From a bacterium (GTDB lineage Bacteria; Patescibacteriota; Minisyncoccia; Phycocordibacterales; PALSA-1337), in the NCBI GenBank assembly GCA_030648705.1, contig JAUSHF010000048.1, positions 1 through 27,795 on the forward strand: a DNA stretch of 27,795 nt. Direction: 5' to 3'. The position numbers were made by a program, and so were the translations under genes. Positions within the stretch are counted from its first letter, which is position 1. Every line of letters starts with the position of its first letter. Positions 725 to 10,342 of this stretch are shown here, in pieces. The notes below the pieces were generated by a model, which searched no databases, was not told where the DNA came from, and saw only the letters and a list, made by a program, of their open reading frames with translations.

Positions 725-1291
725 ATGTTTGAGGAATATAAAAATAAAATATTCGCTTTCTACGAAGGTCAAAAGAGAATGCCGAGTTATAAAGAGATTA
801 TGAATCTCCTCGGTTTCAAATCGAAGAATTCTGTTTATAAATTAGTAAATAAATTAATCGACCTCGGATTCATAGATAAGGATTCGACAGGCAAGCTCAT
901 ACCTAAGAATCTTTTTCAAGAAGTTAAGCTTCTAGGTCTCGTAGAAGCTGGAATTCCTACTTTAGCTGAAGAGGAAACTCTAGATACTTTAAACTTAGAT
1001 AATTATCTAATTAAAGATAGGGATGCCACATATCTTCTCGAAGTTAAGGGTGATTCGATGATAGACGAAGGTATTAAAGAGGGTGACCTCGTGATAGCAG
1101 AGAGAAAAGGTGAACCTCGAGACGGAGATATTGTTATTGCAGAAGTAGATGGTGGCTGGACTATGAAATATTTTAAGAAAAAAGGTAATCTCGTATATCT
1201 AATGCCAGCAAATAAAAATTATAAACCAATATATCCCGAAGAAGAAATGAAAGTAGCCGCTATTGTAAAGGGTGTAATAAGAAAATATTAA
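725..1291 (+). CDS. lexA: LexA-type SOS repressor (wHTH plus S24 autopeptidase)
   Basis: HTH PSYKEIMNLLGFKSKNSV; cleavage site VEAG (A75-G76); GDSM Ser111; Lys148. The 37-residue Ser-Lys spacing matches E. coli LexA S119/K156. Confidence 0.9.
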   Translation: MFEEYKNKIFAFYEGQKRMPSYKEIMNLLGFKSKNSVYKLVNKLIDLGFIDKDSTGKLIPKNLFQEVKLLGLVEAGIPTLAEEETLDTLNLDNYLIKDRDATYLLEVKGDSMIDEGIKEGDLVIAERKGEPRDGDIVIAEVDGGWTMKYFKKKGNLVYLMPANKNYKPIYPEEEMKVAAIVKGVIRKY

Positions 1292-1372
1292 AATTAAAAA
1301 ATTATTAGCTTTGGTATTACAAAATTAAAACATTACGGGTAAATTCGTGAAAAATGTGCTAGACTTTTGTTT

Positions 1373-2365
1373 ATGGCATTTATAGATGAATTAGACTTAC
1401 ATTTAAAGTCTGGAAATGGCGGTGACGGAGTAGTCCGTTGGCGTCATGAAAAAGGCAAAGAATTAAGCGGTCCTTCCGGAGGAAACGGTGGAAGGGGTGC
1501 TGATTTCTACGTTCGCGCTGTGCGTGATAACGCTATCTTAGCACGCTACAGAAATGATAAAGAATTCACAGCAGAGAATGGTGAAGCTGGAATGAAGGAA
1601 AGTCGTCACGGCAAAGACGGAGAGGATTACTTTCTAGATTTACCAATCGGGGCCATTATTACAAATAAAAATACAGGTAGAGTATATTCTTTGGAGAAGG
1701 ACGGAGAGACTGTCTTAATACTACATGGCGGAAAGGGTGGTCTCGGAAATGAATACTTTAAATCTTCTACTAATAGATCACCAGAAGAATTCACAGAAGG
1801 AAAGAAGGGTGACGAAGCGGATTTCTATATCGAGCTCGAACTTTCTGCCGATGCTGGTCTCGCAGGATTTCCTAATGCTGGAAAGTCCAGTATTTTAAAT
1901 ACATTAACGAATGCTTCTGCAAAGGTGGGTGCATATCCCTTTACTACTCTAGAGCCGAATCTAGGAGATTTATTCGGATTCGTACTAGCAGATATTCCCG
2001 GACTCATAGAAGGTGCTTCGGAAGGAAAAGGTCTTGGACATAACTTTCTTAGACATATAAAGAGAACAAAAATGATTGTTCATTGTATTTCTCTAGAACA
2101 TATTCTCGAAGGAAAAACTAAAGATTTAGTGGACGCATACAAGGCTATTAGAAAAGAGCTTGAAGTTTACAGCGATGAATTAGCAAAGAAAAAGGAAGTG
2201 GTGGTTCTCACAAAGACTGATTTAGTAGATGAAAAGCAGATAAAAAGCGCTGTCACTGCAATGAAAAAATACTGTGACGACGTATTCACTATGTCCATAG
2301 TAGACGATAAGGCTATTAAGGAGTTCGGTGATGGACTAGTAAAAATTCTCAGAAAACTAGATTAA
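1373..2365 (+). CDS. obgE: Obg/CgtA GTPase, short form without C-terminal extension
   Basis: Gly-rich Obg fold GNGGDG/GGNGGRG, GFPNAGKS, YPFTTLEPNLG, DIPGLIEGA, TKTD. Start moved to ATG 1373, 7 nt after TGcTAGACT. Confidence 0.97.
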   Translation: MAFIDELDLHLKSGNGGDGVVRWRHEKGKELSGPSGGNGGRGADFYVRAVRDNAILARYRNDKEFTAENGEAGMKESRHGKDGEDYFLDLPIGAIITNKNTGRVYSLEKDGETVLILHGGKGGLGNEYFKSSTNRSPEEFTEGKKGDEADFYIELELSADAGLAGFPNAGKSSILNTLTNASAKVGAYPFTTLEPNLGDLFGFVLADIPGLIEGASEGKGLGHNFLRHIKRTKMIVHCISLEHILEGKTKDLVDAYKAIRKELEVYSDELAKKKEVVVLTKTDLVDEKQIKSAVTAMKKYCDDVFTMSIVDDKAIKEFGDGLVKILRKLD

Positions 2366-2443: not shown

Positions 2444-3883
2444 ATGAGTTATAAACCCACAATAGGTCTAGAAATACACGCGGAGCTAAAGACGGCTTCG
2501 AAAATGTTTTGTTCTTGTAAGAATGATCAGAATGAAACTCGTCCGAATGTGAATGTTTGTCCTGTCTGTATGGGACATCCTGGGACTTTGCCTGTGATTA
2601 ATAAACAGGCTGTTAAAAATGTGATAAAGATGGGTCTGGCTGTTGGAGGAAAGATTGCGGACTTTACAGAATGGGACAGAAAGAATTATTTTTACCCTGA
2701 TATTCCAAAAGGTTACCAGATTACTCAGTATAAATATCCTTTAGTTAGTGGGGGGCAAATAGATGGTATAGAAATCACCAGAATTCATTTAGAGGAAGAC
2801 ACTGCGAAATCTACACATGATACAGGTGGCAGAAGTTTAGTGGATTTTAATCGCTCAGGTTTGCCCTTAATGGAGCTTGTTACAGAACCTGTTATTCACA
2901 ATGGTAAGGACGCTGTTCTCTTTGCAAAAGATTTACAAAGACTTCTCAGATATTTAGAGGCTGGGGATGCGAATATGGAGAAAGGTCAAATGAGAGTGGA
3001 AGCAAATATTTCAGTTAGTAAGACTGACACTTTCGGCACAAAGACAGAAGTAAAGAATTTAAACTCTTTTAAGTCTGTAGAAAAAGCGATAGATTATGAG
3101 ATAAAAAGACAAATAAAATTATTAGATAGCGGTGAAAAAGTGATTCAAGAAACTCGTGGCTGGGACGATGCGAAAGGTGAGACATATTTACAGCGTGTTA
3201 AGGAATCATCTCATGATTATAGATATTTTCCAGATCCTGATTTGCCAAAAATGATGATTAGCGAAATACCGGAATTTTCTGCAGATAATTTGAGCAAAGA
3301 AATTCCTGAGCTCCCTTGGGCAAAGCGTGAGAGACTTATGAAGGATTTTGATTTAAAGGAAGTAGATGCGGATTTATTCCTAGATTTTTCAGAGTTTTTT
3401 GTGTATTTCGAACAGATTTGTTATGAACTTGGTAATGATAAAAAGTTATCAAAAATCGCTTTGAACTATTTGATTACCGATTATTTGTCATTGTTAAAAA
3501 AATCGAATACGAATTCTGCGGATATAGCGGAGAATATAAATAAGATTAGTGTTACTAATTTCGCTAAGCTTGTAAAAATGATTTCTGGAGCTGTGGTATC
3601 ATCACGCGGAGCTAAAGATACTTTAAAAATAATGTTTGAGAAGGGTGGTGAGGATAGCGATCCAGAAGTAATAGCTAAAGAGAATGGCTTTATACAAACT
3701 CATGATGAAGGAGAAATAGAGAAAACTGTAGCAAAGATAATATCAGAGAATGAGAAAGTGGTGGCTGAATACAAATCTGGCAAGGAATCAGTACTTCAAT
3801 TCCTAATAGGTCAAGGTATGAAAGCCACAAAGGGAAGTGCGAATCCAGAGATTCTAATGAAAATATTCAAAAAGTTGCTCTAA
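2444..3883 (+). CDS. gatB: Asp-tRNA(Asn)/Glu-tRNA(Gln) amidotransferase subunit B
   Basis: IGLEIHAEL, RKNYFYPDIPKGYQITQ, RIHLEED, DFNRSGLPLMELVTEP, KNLNS, YRYFPDPDLP. Confidence 0.98.
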   Translation: MSYKPTIGLEIHAELKTASKMFCSCKNDQNETRPNVNVCPVCMGHPGTLPVINKQAVKNVIKMGLAVGGKIADFTEWDRKNYFYPDIPKGYQITQYKYPLVSGGQIDGIEITRIHLEEDTAKSTHDTGGRSLVDFNRSGLPLMELVTEPVIHNGKDAVLFAKDLQRLLRYLEAGDANMEKGQMRVEANISVSKTDTFGTKTEVKNLNSFKSVEKAIDYEIKRQIKLLDSGEKVIQETRGWDDAKGETYLQRVKESSHDYRYFPDPDLPKMMISEIPEFSADNLSKEIPELPWAKRERLMKDFDLKEVDADLFLDFSEFFVYFEQICYELGNDKKLSKIALNYLITDYLSLLKKSNTNSADIAENINKISVTNFAKLVKMISGAVVSSRGAKDTLKIMFEKGGEDSDPEVIAKENGFIQTHDEGEIEKTVAKIISENEKVVAEYKSGKESVLQFLIGQGMKATKGSANPEILMKIFKKLL

Positions 3884-4262: not shown

Positions 4263-4550
4263 ATGGCAAAGAAGTTATACGTAGGGGGTGTGCCTTATAG
4301 CACAAATGACGAAATACTAAGAAAGTATTTCGAACAAGCAGGTGAGGTTACCTCTGCTACGATTATCATGGACCGCGCAACTAATCGCTCAAAAGGCTTT
4401 GGTTTCGTAGAATTCGCAAATGATGCTGATGCAGACAATGCGGTTTCAATGTTCAATGGTAAAGAGTTTGAAGGAAGAAAACTTACGGTTAACGAGGCTC
4501 GTCCTTTGGAACCAAGAGCTCCTCGCAGAGATTTTAACACAAGAGGTTAA
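4263..4550 (+). CDS. Single-RRM RNA-binding protein (Rbp-like)
   Basis: RNP2 LYVGGV, RNP1 SKGFGFVEF, C-terminal LTVNEARP. Confidence 0.95.
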   Translation: MAKKLYVGGVPYSTNDEILRKYFEQAGEVTSATIIMDRATNRSKGFGFVEFANDADADNAVSMFNGKEFEGRKLTVNEARPLEPRAPRRDFNTRG

Positions 4551-4609
4551 TATCTTTCAGGATCTTCTAAAAACTTTGCTCGTCTTAAGTTATTAAGTGG
4601 GCAGGAAAC

Positions 4610-4640
4610 AGAAAGGGCGGCCTTCGGCCGCCCTTTCTCT
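4610..4640 (+). terminator. GC-rich hairpin, probable terminator of the RRM gene
   Basis: AGAAAGGGCGGCC-TTC-GGCCGCCCTTTCT, 13-bp perfect stem. Confidence 0.7.
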
Positions 4641-4723
4641 ATTCCCAAACTCCTTTTTGCAATTTTTGTGTCCAAATAATTTTTTATTTTGCCTTTAAAC
4701 ATTCGTTTTGATAGAATGAAAAG

Positions 4724-6430
4724 ATGAAAAATCAACACAGCAGTCGCAGTAAGACTAATAAGCACAAATTTATTTTTGTCATTGGCGGAGTAATGTCAGG
4801 AGTCGGAAAAGGTATCGCCACCTCATCTATTGGGACCCTTCTACAAGCGAAGGGTTTTTCTGTGAATCTTCTAAAAGTAGATCCGTATCTAAACGTAGAT
4901 GCAGGAACAATGAATCCTACAGAACACGGAGAAGTTTTTGTACTAAATTCTGGACTTGAGACAGATCAGGATATGGGTAATTACGAAAGATTTTTAAATA
5001 GAGACTTAACTGGTGATGACTATATTACTTCTGGTATGGTTTACAAACATGTAATCGAAGCGGAAAGAGCTCTGAAATACGGGGGTAAATGTGTGGAAGC
5101 AATTCCTCATATTCGTGATGAGATTATTCGCCGTTTTGAACATTCTGCGAAGATAAATAAGACGGATATTACGGTGGTAGAAATTGGCGGTACTGTCGGA
5201 GACTATCAGAATATTATGTTCATAGAAGCGGCGCGTGTTATGAAAGTTCGTCATCCAGAAGATGTGATATTCGTAATGGTGTCATACATGCCTGTGCCTT
5301 CTAAGCTTGGAGAGATGAAGTCAAAGCCTACACAGAATGCGATTCGTCAGCTAAATTCCTATGGGGTGAACACGGACATAATCATTGCACGCAGTGAAGT
5401 CCCCATGGATCATAAGAGAAAAGAAAAAATTGCTGTGTCATGCGGAGTTCATACAGATCATGTTATTTCAGCGCCAGATATTGAAAGTGTATTCGATGTA
5501 CCTCTGAACTTTGAAAAAGATAATATGAGTGAAATTCTCATGAAGACTTTGCACTTAAAAAAGCGTACAAATGAAAAAAGTCTAAAAGGACTCGGAGAAT
5601 GGAAGAGATTTGCAGATAATGTAAAGGCTGTTAAGAAAGGTGATAAGGAGGTAAACATTGCTATTGTCGGAAAGTATTTCAATACTGGCGACTTTGTCCT
5701 TACTGACGCTTACGTCTCTGTGCTAGAAGCTATTAAATATTCTGCTTATGCATTAAAAGTTAATCCTAAAATACACACCATAAACGCTCGTGATTTCGAG
5801 GATAAAAATGGGAAGCTTTTGGCTGGTGCTGATTTTAAATCTTTAGATAAATTTGATGGTATTATAGTGCCGGGTGGATTCGGCGAGAGTGGTATAGAGG
5901 GCAAGCTCGCTGTGATTAAATACGCTCGTGAGAATAAGATTCCGTATTTCGGTCTTTGCTACGGAATGCAGTTAATGGTTATAGAATACGCTAGAAATAT
6001 TCTCGGTTTATCCGACGCGAATACTGCTGAGATAAATCCTAAGTCTAGTGCTTTAGTGATAGATATAATGCCGGATCAAAAGAAGAAGCTGGCCGATGGA
6101 AATTATGGAGGAAGTATGAGACTTGGGCAGTATGAAGCAATTTTAAAAAAGGGAACTGTGGCCCATGAAGCTTACGGTGCTGGTTCAGTATTAGAACGTC
6201 ACAGACATCGTTATGAGGTGAATCCTGAATTTGTAGAGAGGATTAGTCAGGCTGGATTAGTATTTTCTGGAACCTCGCCTGATGGTAAACTTATGGAAAT
6301 TGCGGAATTACCAAAATCTGAGCATCCTTTTTTCCTCGGAACACAATTCCACCCTGAATTTTTAGCTCGCCCATTACGCCCACAGCCTCTGTTTACGGAG
6401 TTTATAAAGGTGGCGAAAAATAAGAAATAA
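4724..6430 (+). CDS. pyrG: CTP synthase
   Basis: GGVMSGVGKG, KVDPYLNVDAGTMNPTEHGEVFV, glutaminase GLCYGMQ, ERHRHRYEVN, QFHPEF. Confidence 0.99.
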   Translation: MKNQHSSRSKTNKHKFIFVIGGVMSGVGKGIATSSIGTLLQAKGFSVNLLKVDPYLNVDAGTMNPTEHGEVFVLNSGLETDQDMGNYERFLNRDLTGDDYITSGMVYKHVIEAERALKYGGKCVEAIPHIRDEIIRRFEHSAKINKTDITVVEIGGTVGDYQNIMFIEAARVMKVRHPEDVIFVMVSYMPVPSKLGEMKSKPTQNAIRQLNSYGVNTDIIIARSEVPMDHKRKEKIAVSCGVHTDHVISAPDIESVFDVPLNFEKDNMSEILMKTLHLKKRTNEKSLKGLGEWKRFADNVKAVKKGDKEVNIAIVGKYFNTGDFVLTDAYVSVLEAIKYSAYALKVNPKIHTINARDFEDKNGKLLAGADFKSLDKFDGIIVPGGFGESGIEGKLAVIKYARENKIPYFGLCYGMQLMVIEYARNILGLSDANTAEINPKSSALVIDIMPDQKKKLADGNYGGSMRLGQYEAILKKGTVAHEAYGAGSVLERHRHRYEVNPEFVERISQAGLVFSGTSPDGKLMEIAELPKSEHPFFLGTQFHPEFLARPLRPQPLFTEFIKVAKNKK

Positions 6431-6437
6431 ACGGATA

Positions 6438-7838
6438 ATGAAAAAATATAGGAAAAATATTTATTTATTACTCATACTTTTTGTTTTGAGTATTGCTACT
6501 AGATTTATATTTTTTGGTTACCCTAAGGAAGTTGTCTTTGATGAAACTTATTTCGGTAAATTTGCATCGAGCTATTTGACTGGTAATTATTATTTTGATT
6601 TACATCCTCCTCTCGGCAAGCTTCTTATTAGTGGAATGGGATATACTGCTGGCGCGAAGACAGATAGTACAGATTATTCGAAAATAAATAATCCTTACAA
6701 AGATGATATATATATTTGGTATAGATTACTGCCGACTATAGCTGGAATCCTATTACCATTAATTATTTTCTTTATAATACTTCAATTAGGAGTATCATCT
6801 CTCGGAGCATTTGTGACTAGTGCTCTTATTATCTTTGAGAATTCATTAGTAGTTCAAGCTAGATTCATATCTCTCGACAGCATACTCTTATTTTTTGGGT
6901 TCTCGGCACTTCTCCTCTACCTTTTATATAGTAAAAGTAATGATGAAAAGAAAAAGGTATATTTAGTATTGTCGGCCATATTTGCGTCATTAGCTTTTTG
7001 TATAAAGTGGACAGGCTTATCATTTTTAGGCCTCATATTATTTATGGAATTATATGAGATATTTAGGAATAGATTAAGCGGTATTCTTTCGAAGACTAAA
7101 TCCCTAATAAAATATGCAAAAATAGTCACCTTATTTTTTATCATCGGCTTTGCTATATATTTTTCAAGTTTTGTAATTCATTTTGCATTATTACCAAAGA
7201 CAGGATTAGGAGATGTGTTCATGTCGGAATCTTTTCAGAAAACATTAGTAGGTAGTAAATACGAAAATAATCAAGATATTAAAGTTCCAAATTTGCCTGA
7301 AAAGTTTTTCGAATTAAATAAAGAAATGTATGCAGTTAACGCTCGTATGGATGCTGAGCACTCTTATTCTAGCCTTTGGTATACGTGGCCGTTTATGTAC
7401 AGACCTGTATTTTATTGGCAGGGAATTATAGATGATGAATCTTTGTCACGACCTTATATTTATTATTTAGGTAATCCAATTATTTATTGGTTATCCATAG
7501 GTGCTATTATTCTACTTGTCTTACTTTCCAGATTTTTCAAAGATAGTAGAAAGACAGCTCTTTTTATCATAGCTGGTTTTTGTATAAACTTTCTACCTTT
7601 TATATTTATAGGACGTGTTATGTTTTTATATCATTATGCTACCGCTTTAATATTTGCTGTAATGGCGCTCGTATTAATAATAGATAGGATAAGTGTCCGT
7701 AGAACAAAATATGTCTTATTTGGAGCATTATTAATTCTTAGTGTCGCTTCATTTACTTTTTTCTCACCATTAACCTATGGTAGGCCACTCACTGATTCTC
7801 AGCTAGCTCATAGAATATGGTTTCCAAGCTGGCGGTAG
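6438..7838 (+). CDS. Lipid-carrier-dependent glycosyltransferase, protein O-mannosyltransferase (GT39/PMT)-like
   Basis: VVFDETYF, FDLHPPLGKLLI, LDSILLFF, IKWTG, HSYSSLWYTWP, GNPIIYW, FLYHY; many TM helices. Confidence 0.85.
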   Translation: MKKYRKNIYLLLILFVLSIATRFIFFGYPKEVVFDETYFGKFASSYLTGNYYFDLHPPLGKLLISGMGYTAGAKTDSTDYSKINNPYKDDIYIWYRLLPTIAGILLPLIIFFIILQLGVSSLGAFVTSALIIFENSLVVQARFISLDSILLFFGFSALLLYLLYSKSNDEKKKVYLVLSAIFASLAFCIKWTGLSFLGLILFMELYEIFRNRLSGILSKTKSLIKYAKIVTLFFIIGFAIYFSSFVIHFALLPKTGLGDVFMSESFQKTLVGSKYENNQDIKVPNLPEKFFELNKEMYAVNARMDAEHSYSSLWYTWPFMYRPVFYWQGIIDDESLSRPYIYYLGNPIIYWLSIGAIILLVLLSRFFKDSRKTALFIIAGFCINFLPFIFIGRVMFLYHYATALIFAVMALVLIIDRISVRRTKYVLFGALLILSVASFTFFSPLTYGRPLTDSQLAHRIWFPSWR

Positions 7839-7839
7839 C

Positions 7840-8109
7840 ATGGGTTTCTATATTAAGAGTGATAAATTTGCCAGACCAGTTCTAATTCTAAAAGTCTTTA
7901 ATTTAAGACATATTTGGATATTGCCGTTATCAAGTATGAAAGGTAGAAGTAATTATTATTTTTAGACTAGATTATATGGTAAAAAATCTTACATTATATT
8001 ATCTCAAATTAGGACGATTAGTACTCTAGGATTGTCGAAAATTATGTACACTATTAGTAATAGTGATTTTGAAGAGATTGTCTCGAAAGTTAAAAAGATT
8101 TTAGAATAG
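7840..8109 (+). pseudogene. PemK/MazF-like toxin pseudogene with an in-frame TAG at 7963-7965
   Basis: MGFYIKSDKFARPVLILKVFNLRHIWILPLSSMKGRSNYYF*TRLYGKKSYIILSQIRTISTLGLSKIMYTISNSDFEEIVSKVKKILE*. RPVLI, LPLSS and SQIRTI are MazF-type motifs. Both halves are under 60 aa, so absent from the ORF track. Confidence 0.7.
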
Positions 8110-8114
8110 ATACT

Positions 8115-8140
8115 AAAAAACCGAGTAAACTCGGTTTTTT
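8115..8140. terminator. Bidirectional intrinsic terminator
   Basis: AAAAAA-CCGAG-TAAA-CTCGG-TTTTTT. Confidence 0.85.
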
Positions 8141-8221
8141 AGATAATTCGCTAGATAAGTACTTCTAGCCTTGCGAAACCTGATTACTTTTTCAGGAATC
8201 TCGAACCCTCATGGGACTAAT
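8115..8221 (-). ncRNA. Candidate ~105-nt small RNA of unknown family
   Basis: Upstream minus-strand promoter, internal hairpins, ends in the bidirectional terminator, no ORF longer than 6 codons seen. Confidence 0.35.
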
Positions 8222-8227
8222 ACAAAC

Positions 8228-8255
8228 ATTCTATCATTTTTAAAAAATTTTTCAA
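8228..8255 (-). promoter_or_regulatory. Sigma70 promoter, extended -10
   Basis: TTGAAA (8255-8250), 16 nt, TAGAAT (8233-8228), with TG one base upstream of the -10. Confidence 0.5.
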
Positions 8256-8303
8256 TAGCAATATTAAGCCTAATGGTAGGAAAATATGATATAATGATTA
8301 AAA

Positions 8304-9002
8304 ATGAGAAAAGCATGGAATAGAGGTTTAAATAAAAATAATAATCTGTCTGTGAGAAAGATATCAGACACTATGAAGAAAAGAAAAGTCGACAATTTTT
8401 CTAATTGGAGAGAGAAAATGCGTAAAACTGGAAAGATTAAGTCGAATTATCCTGATTTCGTAAAGGATGGAGATTTAGCAGAATTTATTGGTGTTATTCT
8501 TGGGGATGGACATATCTGTAAATTTCCACGTACGGAGTCTCTTTCTCTATTCTCAAATTCAAACAATTTAGGTTTTGTAAAGAGATATGCTAAAATTTTT
8601 GAAAAAGTTTTCCATAAGAAACCTACAATATCAAAAAGAAGTAAGATGAATTGTATAAAAATCAATATTTATGAGAAAAATATAAGTAAAAGATTAGGTA
8701 TTTACTCTGGAGCTAGAATAAAAAGAAAGATAATAATTCCAGATTGGATTTTGCTAAATGATGACTTCGTAGTAAGATACTTACGAGGTTTATATGAGGC
8801 AGAAGGTTGCTTCTGTGCTCATAAACCGACCGGTACTTACAAACTATTTTTCTCAAATAGGAATATATCAATGTTAAAAAATGTCTTTTCTTTGTTAAAA
8901 AGACTTGGTTTTCATCCACATATACGTTATTGTGATGTACAGCTCTCAAGGAAAGAAGAGGTAAAAAGAGCTATGGAAATCTTAAACTTCAAAAAGTACT
9001 AA
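8304..9002 (+). CDS. Free-standing double-motif LAGLIDADG endonuclease-like protein
   Basis: LAEFIGVILGDG and YLRGLYEAEG motifs; basic N-terminal extension (AWNRGL, NUMOD-like); TGaTATAAT ends 8 nt before ATG. Confidence 0.8.
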   Translation: MRKAWNRGLNKNNNLSVRKISDTMKKRKVDNFSNWREKMRKTGKIKSNYPDFVKDGDLAEFIGVILGDGHICKFPRTESLSLFSNSNNLGFVKRYAKIFEKVFHKKPTISKRSKMNCIKINIYEKNISKRLGIYSGARIKRKIIIPDWILLNDDFVVRYLRGLYEAEGCFCAHKPTGTYKLFFSNRNISMLKNVFSLLKRLGFHPHIRYCDVQLSRKEEVKRAMEILNFKKY

Positions 9003-9004
9003 AT

Positions 9005-9075
9005 TGCGGGATCTGCTAATGGTAGGCAAACAGACTCTGAATCTGTGAATCTTGGTTCGAATCCAAGTCCCGCAG
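9005..9075 (+). tRNA. tRNA-Gln(CUG); CCA not encoded
   Basis: Acceptor TGCGGGA/TCCCGCA, D-arm TGC-TAATGGTAG-GCA, anticodon arm ACAGA-CTCTGAA-TCTGT, T-arm CTTGG-TTCGAAT-CCAAG. Confidence 0.97.
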
Positions 9076-9187
9076 CAATTTCGGATAAGTTCGGATGTAG
9101 TAGACGGAAAGATTGAAATTATAACAAAGGGTGAATATTTAGAATTTAATTAGCAAATTTATAAATTTTATGGGAAAAAGTTTTAGA

Positions 9188-10342
9188 TTATTGAGAAACC
9201 CAAACGTCATTTAGCCATGTCCAATTCGAACCCATACCACCGAATACATATAATTTATCTTTAAATTCTAGGACAGAATGATCTTCTCGGCCGATCCATT
9301 CAGGATTTGTATTTGTTCTTTTCCAATTTTTACCATCCTCTGAATACCATATATCATTTATGCCTCCGTCTTTGTCATCATCAAGTCTTCCTATTATCCA
9401 TAGATTATTTTTGTAACTTACTAGAGCATGACCTTGTCTAGCTGACCACGATGGATTATTAGTTACGAGTTCCCAGTTAATACCATCAGCTGATGACCAA
9501 ACATCTCTAAAAGTCGTACCAGATAAGTTCATACCTCCAACTAGGAATATTTTATCTTTGAAAATTTCTATATCATGATCCCATCTAGGTCCCCATGGAA
9601 CAGTAGTGGTGGCTTTATACCACTTCAAACCATTATCTGAATACCAAATATCATTCTTTGCTTCTCTTTTATCATAATTTACACCCCCCATAAGCCAGAT
9701 TTTATCTTGGAAAACTTCTACTACCTGACCTTCGCGTGCTGGCCATTCGGCAGAGGAGACTACTTTTCTCCAATTTATACCATCTTCTGACTGCCATATA
9801 TCACTCGTATAGCCATATTTAGTACTCCATCCTCCCAGCATCCATAATTTATCATGAAAGAAAACTACAGACATAGATCTTCGCGGTGACCATGAAGCTT
9901 TAGGATTTACTAATTTCCAAGACACACCATCATCACTGTTCCAAATATCATTAAAGTGGGGAGCCTCCCAATACTTTACATAATGTTCACTATTCACATT
10001 TTTATTTCCATTAAGTCCTCCCATTGTCCAGATCTTATCTTTAAAGACAAAGCTGACCGCAGAATCTCTAGCCTTCCATTCTGCAGAAGATGTAGCGAGA
10101 GACCAAGATAAAGCACTGGGTTCAAATTTGGGAACGATATAAATAGTGCTTGTAGCTACAGATGTATTGACAGTATTATTTTGCACTAAGTTTTTATTAT
10201 TTACCTCTATTTTAAGTAACGTAAAATATTCTGAACCGAATTTAACGGCAAAGAAAAGAATTATTAAGACTAGTATAAACTTTATACAAAAAATAAAACC
10301 ATTTTTATCAAACATGGGACTTTCATGATTCTCATCGTTCAT
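9188..10342 (-). CDS. Membrane-anchored Kelch-like beta-propeller protein
   Basis: One N-terminal TM helix, then about six ~50-aa repeats W-x-x-R...F-x-D-K-x-W-x-x-G-G...D-I-W-x-S-x-D-G. Confidence 0.8.
   Translation of the reverse strand: MNDENHESPMFDKNGFIFCIKFILVLIILFFAVKFGSEYFTLLKIEVNNKNLVQNNTVNTSVATSTIYIVPKFEPSALSWSLATSSAEWKARDSAVSFVFKDKIWTMGGLNGNKNVNSEHYVKYWEAPHFNDIWNSDDGVSWKLVNPKASWSPRRSMSVVFFHDKLWMLGGWSTKYGYTSDIWQSEDGINWRKVVSSAEWPAREGQVVEVFQDKIWLMGGVNYDKREAKNDIWYSDNGLKWYKATTTVPWGPRWDHDIEIFKDKIFLVGGMNLSGTTFRDVWSSADGINWELVTNNPSWSARQGHALVSYKNNLWIIGRLDDDKDGGINDIWYSEDGKNWKRTNTNPEWIGREDHSVLEFKDKLYVFGGMGSNWTWLNDVWVSQ

Follow-up and report, generated by a model that had tools for sequence, protein, structure and literature searches.

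The usual view is that a homing endonuclease can occupy a conserved gene without harm only from within an intron or an intein. Free-standing homing endonucleases are known from T-even phages, for example the GIY-YIG enzyme SegB in the tRNA gene cluster of phage T4, where the process is referred to as intronless homing. Here we describe a free-standing LAGLIDADG endonuclease gene that is joined to a tRNA-Gln(CUG) gene in a 27,795-nucleotide stretch of DNA (hereafter the window; contig JAUSHF010000048.1 of assembly GCA_030648705.1) from a member of the Paceibacteria, which belong to the Patescibacteria or Candidate Phyla Radiation (CPR). The genome assembly of the host (G000) comprises 570 kb in 60 contigs and is estimated to be 93% complete, which is typical of Patescibacteria. 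We consider it likely that positions 8267..9083 of the window constitute a free-standing homing-endonuclease cassette that is specialised on the tRNA-Gln(CUG) gene of Paceibacteria.

The resemblance to SegB-type systems lies in a gene that is located outside of an intron or intein and next to tRNA genes, with spread presumed to proceed via a double-strand break, repair from the bearer and co-conversion of neighbouring DNA. In contrast to these GIY-YIG enzymes of phage, the window cassette encodes a LAGLIDADG protein, resides in a bacterial chromosome inside of what appears to be a former tRNA gene, and is accompanied by a 5' relic of that gene and by a complete replacement tRNA. The best structural matches to the encoded protein are the archaeal intron-encoded enzymes I-DmoI and I-Tsp061I (Foldseek E ~1e-8, template modelling (TM) scores of 0.5-0.68), which are likewise two-motif monomers with an Asp in motif 1 and a Glu in motif 2. 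However, sequence identity to these enzymes is 13-19%, and they are located in spliced rRNA introns whereas the window gene has no intron and contains an extra, conserved N-terminal region of ~55 residues. A tRNA-Thr locus of Caldiarchaeum harbours an integrase-type element with a stranded tRNA fragment upstream and a working tRNA downstream, and its description makes no mention of LAGLIDADG or homing endonucleases (PMC3293823). Integrase-type tRNA islands and plasmids contain a recombinase and are kilobases long, unlike the 0.8 kb window cassette that encodes only an endonuclease and a tRNA. In CPR bacteria, LAGLIDADG endonucleases have been reported in rRNA insertions, in a text that does not cover tRNA or free-standing genes (PMC11270868). 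These enzymes are from the same phylum and nuclease superfamily as the window gene, but are found inside rRNA genes. No description of tRNA-abutting LAGLIDADG cassettes was found in the literature that we searched.

The window cassette is composed of a short piece of tRNA sequence, a promoter, the LAGLIDADG gene and a whole tRNA-Gln(CUG) (Table 1). An original prediction, made by inspection of the window, held that the endonuclease stop codon lies 2 nt before an intact tRNA-Gln(CUG) and that an 11-nt copy of this tRNA occurs upstream of the gene's own promoter. Both observations are accurate. The end of the open reading frame (ORF) and the tRNA calls of ARAGORN and Rfam leave the 2-nt spacer, and CTAATGGTAGG is present exactly at both 8270..8280, ahead of the -10 box, and 9016..9026, in the D-loop of tRNA-Gln. 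A separate tRNA promoter had been described as not evident, and a consensus scan of 8304..9004 returned no promoter-like site on the plus strand. The tRNA is uninterrupted and the ORF stands alone, which places the gene outside of any intron or intein. Within 7800..9400 an Rfam search recovered no ribozyme, intron or other family besides the tRNA, with no match to an intron model at E values up to 10, and a tRNA pseudogene or other RNA family in this interval was rejected as a candidate as the search returned nothing credible. The 817-bp unit encodes no tyrosine or serine recombinase, the LAGLIDADG gene being its sole ORF. This gene is present in one copy in the assembled genome, where tRNA-Gln(CUG) is the only tRNA-Gln among the 25 tRNAs that were found. 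The limits of the cassette are taken from the closest homologous locus (L013, protein 80% identical), since blastn similarity between it and the window (77.7% identity over 819 nt) is confined to 8267..9083 and does not extend, as DNA or translated, into the window flanks on either side. The shared interval thus covers the relic core, the promoter, the gene and the tRNA plus 7 nt.

A protein search identified 966 relatives, the best 120 of which are 209-305 amino acids in length (most 230-235) with 56-80% identity. From species-representative genomes we took 80 homologous loci (L013-L092). A same-strand tRNA-Gln(CUG) follows the gene in 73 of these, and the remaining seven contigs end less than 80 nt past the gene. 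Of eight metagenome loci, seven likewise have this tRNA behind the gene, as do the five further gene-bearing loci that were scanned from a sample of the class. The expectation that homologues adjoin a tRNA therefore holds, with tRNA-Gln(CUG) present in every locus long enough to show adjacency (~85). The spacer from stop codon to tRNA ranges from 1 to 23 nt with a mode of 3-4 nt (73 loci). No cassette was seen at tRNA-Gln(UUG), though in many relatives this tRNA has the same D-arm as tRNA-Gln(CUG). The CTP synthase gene pyrG is located within 3 kb upstream in 22 of the 80 endonuclease-bearing loci, and a scan of metagenomes recovered no homologue above 61% identity. Separately, 16 of the 80 contigs end within ~100 nt of the cassette tRNA, which would be in keeping with a heterogeneous population or with repeats at this position.

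The region upstream of the gene was compared across 55 homologous loci with a reliable start codon. A recurrent order is observed in the 100 nt before the start, which is up to 24 nt resembling tRNA-Gln nt 1-24, a run of A, an extended -10 box, 6-8 nt and the ATG. In 45/55 loci the D-arm piece, allowing for up to 2 mismatches, is found no more than 60 nt from the ATG. A TAnnnT box lies 4-10 nt before the ATG in 50/55 loci (at exactly 6 nt in 38) and has a TG extension in 41/55, while none of the 55 exhibits a Shine-Dalgarno-like motif before the ATG. The endonuclease mRNA is thus probably leaderless or near-leaderless. Approximately 24 of 63 relics reach tRNA nt 1 with the acceptor strand retained, and several of these have a -10-like box in front of them, spaced as in a tRNA promoter. 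In the window alone, the 11-mer is only mildly unusual, as 0.30 matches with at most one mismatch are expected, three are seen and 1 of 100 shuffles reached three. This modest excess would permit the view that the 11-mer arose by chance or in connection with the promoter, and that the gene merely happens to adjoin a tRNA. We give this view practically no weight, as it is already refuted by the comparative data: the piece recurs at a fixed place in those 45 loci, a 23-24 nt 5' part of the tRNA is present in ~24, and adjacency is universal. Identification of the 11-mer as a piece of tRNA consequently draws its real support from recurrence across homologous loci and not from window statistics.

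Two further properties of the relic may bear on its function. Its distance to the endonuclease -10 box is either 8-10 nt or 19-20 nt, so that two spacing classes can be told apart, and the D-loop part has been preserved better than the acceptor part. With spacing classes one helical turn apart and a better kept D-loop part, the relic might double as an operator.

Relatives that lack the gene provide a view of the empty site. The 60 nearest relatives of the host contain no close homologue, their LAGLIDADG matches being only 23-41% identical, and they do have tRNA-Gln(CUG) without an endonuclease gene there. In G001, G007, G016, G037, G015, G024, G021 and G002 this endonuclease-free tRNA has pyrG upstream, at a distance of ~120 nt in G001 (a member of the same genus), ~430-650 nt in G016, G037, G015 and G024, and 1.8-3.9 kb in G021 and G002. 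The window differs in that a PMT gene and the cassette separate pyrG from the tRNA. No endonuclease remnants were detected in the pyrG-tRNA spacers of the relatives by tblastn at E 1e-5. The comparison with relatives lacking the gene that the original prediction called for can be made most directly within two other genera that contain both filled and empty sites. In the first, the upstream flank of bearing genome G289 is homologous to that of gene-free G351 and G197 up to a few nt before the tRNA start, and the relic is located at that spot. Behind the relic of G289 come the promoter, the gene and a complete tRNA whose anticodon stem, T-stem and D-arm are unlike the allele common to G351 and G197. 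In the second, the relic of bearing genome G251 begins exactly at the tRNA start of gene-free G171, and the tRNA that follows the gene belongs in its entirety to a foreign type. Similarity between G251 and G171 resumes by eye right after the tRNA 3' end, a stretch that is not reported by blastn. Judged from these alignments, the tRNA that follows the gene is from end to end a foreign allele in both of the two clean same-genus pairs. A search of endonuclease-free genomes for an excision scar with the junction motif gave one match, in G278, which was rejected as probably due to chance since neither a tRNA nor an endonuclease is nearby.

The relic and the adjacent tRNA differ in their allele patterns. 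The D-stem of the relic nearly always occurs as one of two variants, with G or A at nt 10 followed by T. In contrast, the adjacent working tRNAs exhibit many compensated D-stem variants as well as a second sequence type. The original prediction had set, as its own test, that the upstream fragment should co-vary with the neighbouring tRNA, and this co-variation was not found; the relic consensus instead matches the commonest endonuclease-free allele. This result is expected if the relic is the left part of a cut resident gene and the working tRNA comes from a donor. Alleles were counted among matches to a canonical D-loop pattern, comprising 129 endonuclease-free matches (from an even sample of 401 class genomes) and the 26 of 72 cassette tRNAs that are canonical. 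At nt 10-11, GT is present in 92/129 endonuclease-free versus 5/26 cassette tRNAs, AT in 21/129 versus 4/26, GG in 10/129 versus 5/26, TG in 6/129 versus 9/26 and TT in 0/129 versus 3/26. For GT against the rest Fisher's test gives p = 1e-6, a value that overstates the evidence as the genomes are related. The relic sequence additionally offers a putative reading of the enzyme's left half-site. We also observed in the class sample that identical 30-nt D-arm/anticodon-arm alleles of tRNA-Gln(CUG) occur in many families and that single genera (e.g. g91 and g1) contain at least three alleles, which hints at frequent exchange.

The 232-amino acid protein matches Pfam LAGLIDADG_3 with an E value of 1.2e-8, which is above the curated cut-off. 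Two LAGLIDADG motifs are present in one chain at approximately residues 59-69 and 158-168, ~100 residues apart. The predicted catalytic residues are D68 in motif 1, retained in 78/79 homologues, and E167 in motif 2, retained in 79/79. An alignment of 30 relatives has 52 invariant positions that include the acidic residue closing each motif. The AlphaFold2 model is confident (mean predicted local distance difference test score of 87.8) and its predicted fold is composed of two alpha-beta-beta-alpha-beta-beta-alpha domains as in I-DmoI. A Foldseek search with this model returned probability 1.0 for I-DmoI, bI3 maturase, I-Tsp061I and I-AniI; intein endonuclease domains were also among the best matches, with WhiA lower. 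A sequence search of the PDB gave marginal matches only. A candidate NUMOD3-like N-terminal motif, suspected by eye, was discarded for lack of Pfam support. A phage or viral origin was also rejected, as collections of phage and viral sequences contained no matches to the protein. Some family members (P0112, L052, L079, L167 and L173) are extended at the N terminus by 65-75 residues that include a Cys-x2-Cys ... His-x4-His pattern, possibly an added zinc-finger DNA-binding module.

Of 401 genomes sampled from the class, a profile search found 14 (~3%) with the gene, and these belong to 14 of 284 sampled genera and to 13 families, each bearer being in a different genus. None of 30 relatives of G061, the host of the closest homologue, contains it. 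Gene and host histories were compared at 15 loci with a full-length pyrG as host marker. Pairwise identities of endonuclease and pyrG are barely correlated (Pearson 0.23, Spearman 0.15). For example, the pyrG genes of L044 and L086 are 91% identical while their endonucleases are 69% identical, and in another pair pyrG is 52% and the endonucleases are 71% identical. In maximum likelihood comparisons with the approximately unbiased (AU) test, the endonuclease data reject the pyrG topology (delta lnL 176, AU p ~1e-81) and the pyrG data reject the endonuclease topology (delta lnL 540, AU p 1e-6). One sister pair, L051/L066, is common to both trees, which indicates some short-term vertical descent.

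The original prediction had named a gene tree congruent with the hosts as an outcome that would favour a domesticated WhiA-like regulator, and the mutual rejection of topologies is the opposite result. Such a regulator would bind the D-arm DNA of tRNA-Gln and the upstream look-alike, thereby controlling tRNA-Gln and itself, and would have no role as a nuclease. In WhiA the catalytic acidic residues are lost; the protein contains degenerate LAGLIDADG domains and a C-terminal helix-turn-helix (HTH) domain, and is vertically inherited. The window protein does have weak Pfam matches to WhiA domains, all below the cut-offs, and WhiA is among its fold matches with a TM score of 0.62. The two spacing classes of the relic and the better kept D-loop part, both operator-like, also agree with this proposal. 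However, the catalytic D and E are nearly universal among the copies, and a Pfam search found no HTH domain in the protein. The gene is also restricted to ~3% of genomes, and the ~60 nearest relatives express the same tRNA without it. Moreover, a homing endonuclease could also regulate itself through an operator, and such autoregulation would not speak against mobility. Together with the incongruent phylogeny, these features make a WhiA-type regulator a distinctly improbable explanation.

Comparison across genomes thus shows a package that is always at tRNA-Gln(CUG), is patchy and incongruent with its hosts, and replaces the ordinary tRNA-Gln(CUG) found at the same place in close relatives. 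The locus had originally been described as an integrase-free mobile unit that invades the 5' part of a tRNA gene and restores a complete copy downstream. The lack of an integrase, the 5' piece upstream, the complete tRNA downstream and the patchy, incongruent distribution uphold the first part of this description. The second part needs amendment, as the tRNA is not simply restored but is a foreign allele in the two clean comparisons.

We propose the following cycle for the homing-endonuclease cassette, each step of which we infer with lower confidence than the reading of the locus as a mobile cassette. The enzyme would cut endonuclease-free tRNA-Gln(CUG) genes near the junction of the D-arm and anticodon arm (~nt 24/25), because every relic ends there. 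Its recognition site of ~20 bp probably extends to the anticodon, which would account for the lack of cassettes at tRNA-Gln(UUG). The break would then be repaired from a cassette-bearing copy, with the broken left end pairing with the donor relic. Repair synthesis would pass through the endonuclease gene and the cassette tRNA, and either the 3' portion of the tRNA or the flank beyond it would serve to close the repair. In this manner the recipient would retain its own promoter and first ~24 nt as a new relic while its working tRNA becomes the donor allele. The donor allele, which is often different in the D-stem at the presumed cut site, may on that account resist cleavage. The tRNA is probably produced from the endonuclease transcript, or by read-through from the old tRNA promoter, with release by RNase P. 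Dependence of the tRNA on the cassette transcript would make the cassette hard to delete.

Several observations weigh against this proposal. Firstly, we found neither a clearly decayed endonuclease copy nor a clean excision scar, in a search that was biased towards intact genes; a classical homing cycle predicts both, so their lack counts against the proposal. Secondly, the cassette tRNAs of L013, L055, L074 and L077 have a D-arm equal to the relic consensus, so a change in the D-stem cannot be a general route to self-immunity. Thirdly, tRNA similarity is not predicted by endonuclease similarity (70 loci, Mantel r = 0.05, p = 0.14), which indicates that the tRNA need not travel with the gene, or that any joint transfer can no longer be detected; the idea that the two must be inherited together is accordingly not supported. 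Additionally, the allele counts are not phylogenetically independent and the host phylogeny is derived from a single marker. Finally, G061 may be fairly close kin of G000 (pyrG 81-90%, GatB 67%), so that pair may reflect vertical inheritance.

Some of these points would suit a cassette that is stranded or domesticated. According to this alternative, an old invasion no longer homes and has since descended mainly vertically, its promoter or transcript being needed for the sole tRNA-Gln(CUG), with patchiness reflecting many losses. None of the ~80 recovered copies is disrupted, the rate of protein evolution is similar to the slow rate of pyrG (47-71% identity), and no second tRNA-Gln(CUG) was seen in those bearing genomes that were examined. 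The L051/L066 sister pair and the possible kinship of G061 and G000 also fit this alternative. However, the AU test rejects congruence in both directions, the L044/L086 pair is discordant, and the 14 bearers are spread over as many genera. The well-preserved relic would furthermore have decayed had the insertions been old, and conservation of catalytic residues is needless for a mere expression scaffold. On balance we regard a stranded cassette as unlikely, and favour a cassette that continues to move by homing.

Nucleases joined to tRNA genes are not confined to this family. Relatives of G000 contain distant LAGLIDADG genes (L002-L012 and L149-L159; mostly 22-30% identical) directly upstream of tRNA-Ser(CGA/GCU/UGA), tRNA-Tyr(GUA), tRNA-Leu(UAA/GAG) and tRNA-Asp(GUC). 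These ORFs often extend 9-55 nt into the adjoining tRNA, and at tRNA-Leu(CAA) the gene is located directly downstream. In the sample of this family, the only exceptions not joined to a tRNA are intein-sized frames. No upstream tRNA relic was detected at loci L002-L012. G000 itself has a second LAGLIDADG_3 gene on contig 58 at ~4285..4941 (L160, 1471..2127), which lies 5 nt after tRNA-Cys and 15 nt before tRNA-Leu(UAA). In addition, two members of the class that lack the endonuclease have a GIY-YIG insert at tRNA-Gln(CUG) (L140 and L141, Table 1). This insert consists of tRNA nt 1-~54, a GC-rich block of ~65 nt, a GIY-YIG gene of 81 amino acids (Pfam E 7e-14) and a whole tRNA. A related arrangement without an ORF occurs in L142 (G160:C3:14000-16000, ~1000..1190), where a partial tRNA-Gln (nt 1-~52), a 72-nt spacer and a whole tRNA-Gln(CUG) may be what is left at a site from which an insert was lost. 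The tandem matches to tRNA-Gln in G132, G458 and G160 had been candidates for decayed LAGLIDADG copies, and were rejected as they contain a GIY-YIG gene or no ORF. A broader reading is that intron-less LAGLIDADG cassettes have radiated across the tRNA genes of these ultra-small bacteria. Each would be adapted to a single tRNA (Gln-CUG, Ser, Tyr, Leu or Asp) and would spread by cleavage of the resident gene, whose place is taken by a cleavage-resistant allele that the cassette carries. We hold this tentatively, as an idea with somewhat less than an even chance of being right. If true, alleles at tRNA loci would turn over rapidly, 5' fragments of tRNAs would be left stranded, and an essential tRNA would be tied to the transcript of its cassette, which would make the cassette hard to lose.

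The tRNA-Gln(CUG) cassette may represent a third solution, next to the intron and the intein, to the problem of occupying a conserved gene. For an RNA gene, a replacement copy would be brought in and the old 5' end left behind. If true, this would explain stranded tRNA fragments in CPR genomes as well as the unusual within-genus diversity of their tRNA-Gln(CUG) alleles. The homologues would also constitute a large uncharacterised set of natural LAGLIDADG enzymes with targets that could be read from the relics, which may be of interest for meganuclease engineering. The window enzyme, with the endonuclease-free alleles of its congeners as predicted site, forms a testable pair.

Table 1. Coordinates of the tRNA-Gln(CUG) cassette and neighbouring genes in the window, and of the GIY-YIG inserts at tRNA-Gln(CUG) in other genomes.
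Feature	Location	Strand	Basis or remark
Putative relic of the resident tRNA-Gln gene (D-arm, ~tRNA nt 10-24), acceptor part gone; left cassette limit	8267..8281	+	Exact 11-mer; homology with L013 from 8267
Extended -10 promoter TGnTATAAT, 8 nt 5' of ATG, without Shine-Dalgarno motif	8287..8295	+	Direct reading of sequence
Gene for free-standing monomeric double-motif LAGLIDADG endonuclease, 232 aa; TAA stop at 9000..9002	8304..9002	+	Pfam LAGLIDADG_3
2-nt spacer, stop codon to tRNA nt 1	9003..9004	+	ORF end and ARAGORN tRNA start
Complete tRNA-Gln(CUG), D-stem allele TG/CA, no encoded CCA	9005..9076	+	ARAGORN; Rfam tRNA 9005..9075, 58.9 bits
Cassette extent common to window and closest homologous locus L013	8267..9083	+	blastn
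pyrG (CTP synthase), ancestral upstream neighbour of tRNA-Gln(CUG); context, outside cassette	4724..6430	+	Pfam
PMT-type glycosyltransferase gene, between pyrG and cassette	6438..7838		
GIY-YIG insert, L140	G132:C20:5000-7500; ORF 1196..1441; tRNA 1459..1530		GC-rich block recurs just after whole tRNA
GIY-YIG insert, L141	G458:C26:1-1800	-	

Three features of the surrounding DNA are recorded here. The PMT gene is found at this place in the window genome only, while congeners G001 and G002 have PMT genes of 44-48% identity elsewhere, the G002 copy with one stop codon. On the minus strand, 8113..8255 contains a promoter-like site at 8255..8228 (10/12 matches, with a TG extension) that faces a strong hairpin terminator at 8142..8113, and this stretch, which is not common to L013, is a candidate small RNA. 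Lastly, gatB, which encodes a subunit of the amidotransferase that makes Gln-tRNA(Gln), is located at 2444..3883, 5 kb upstream of the tRNA-Gln gene.

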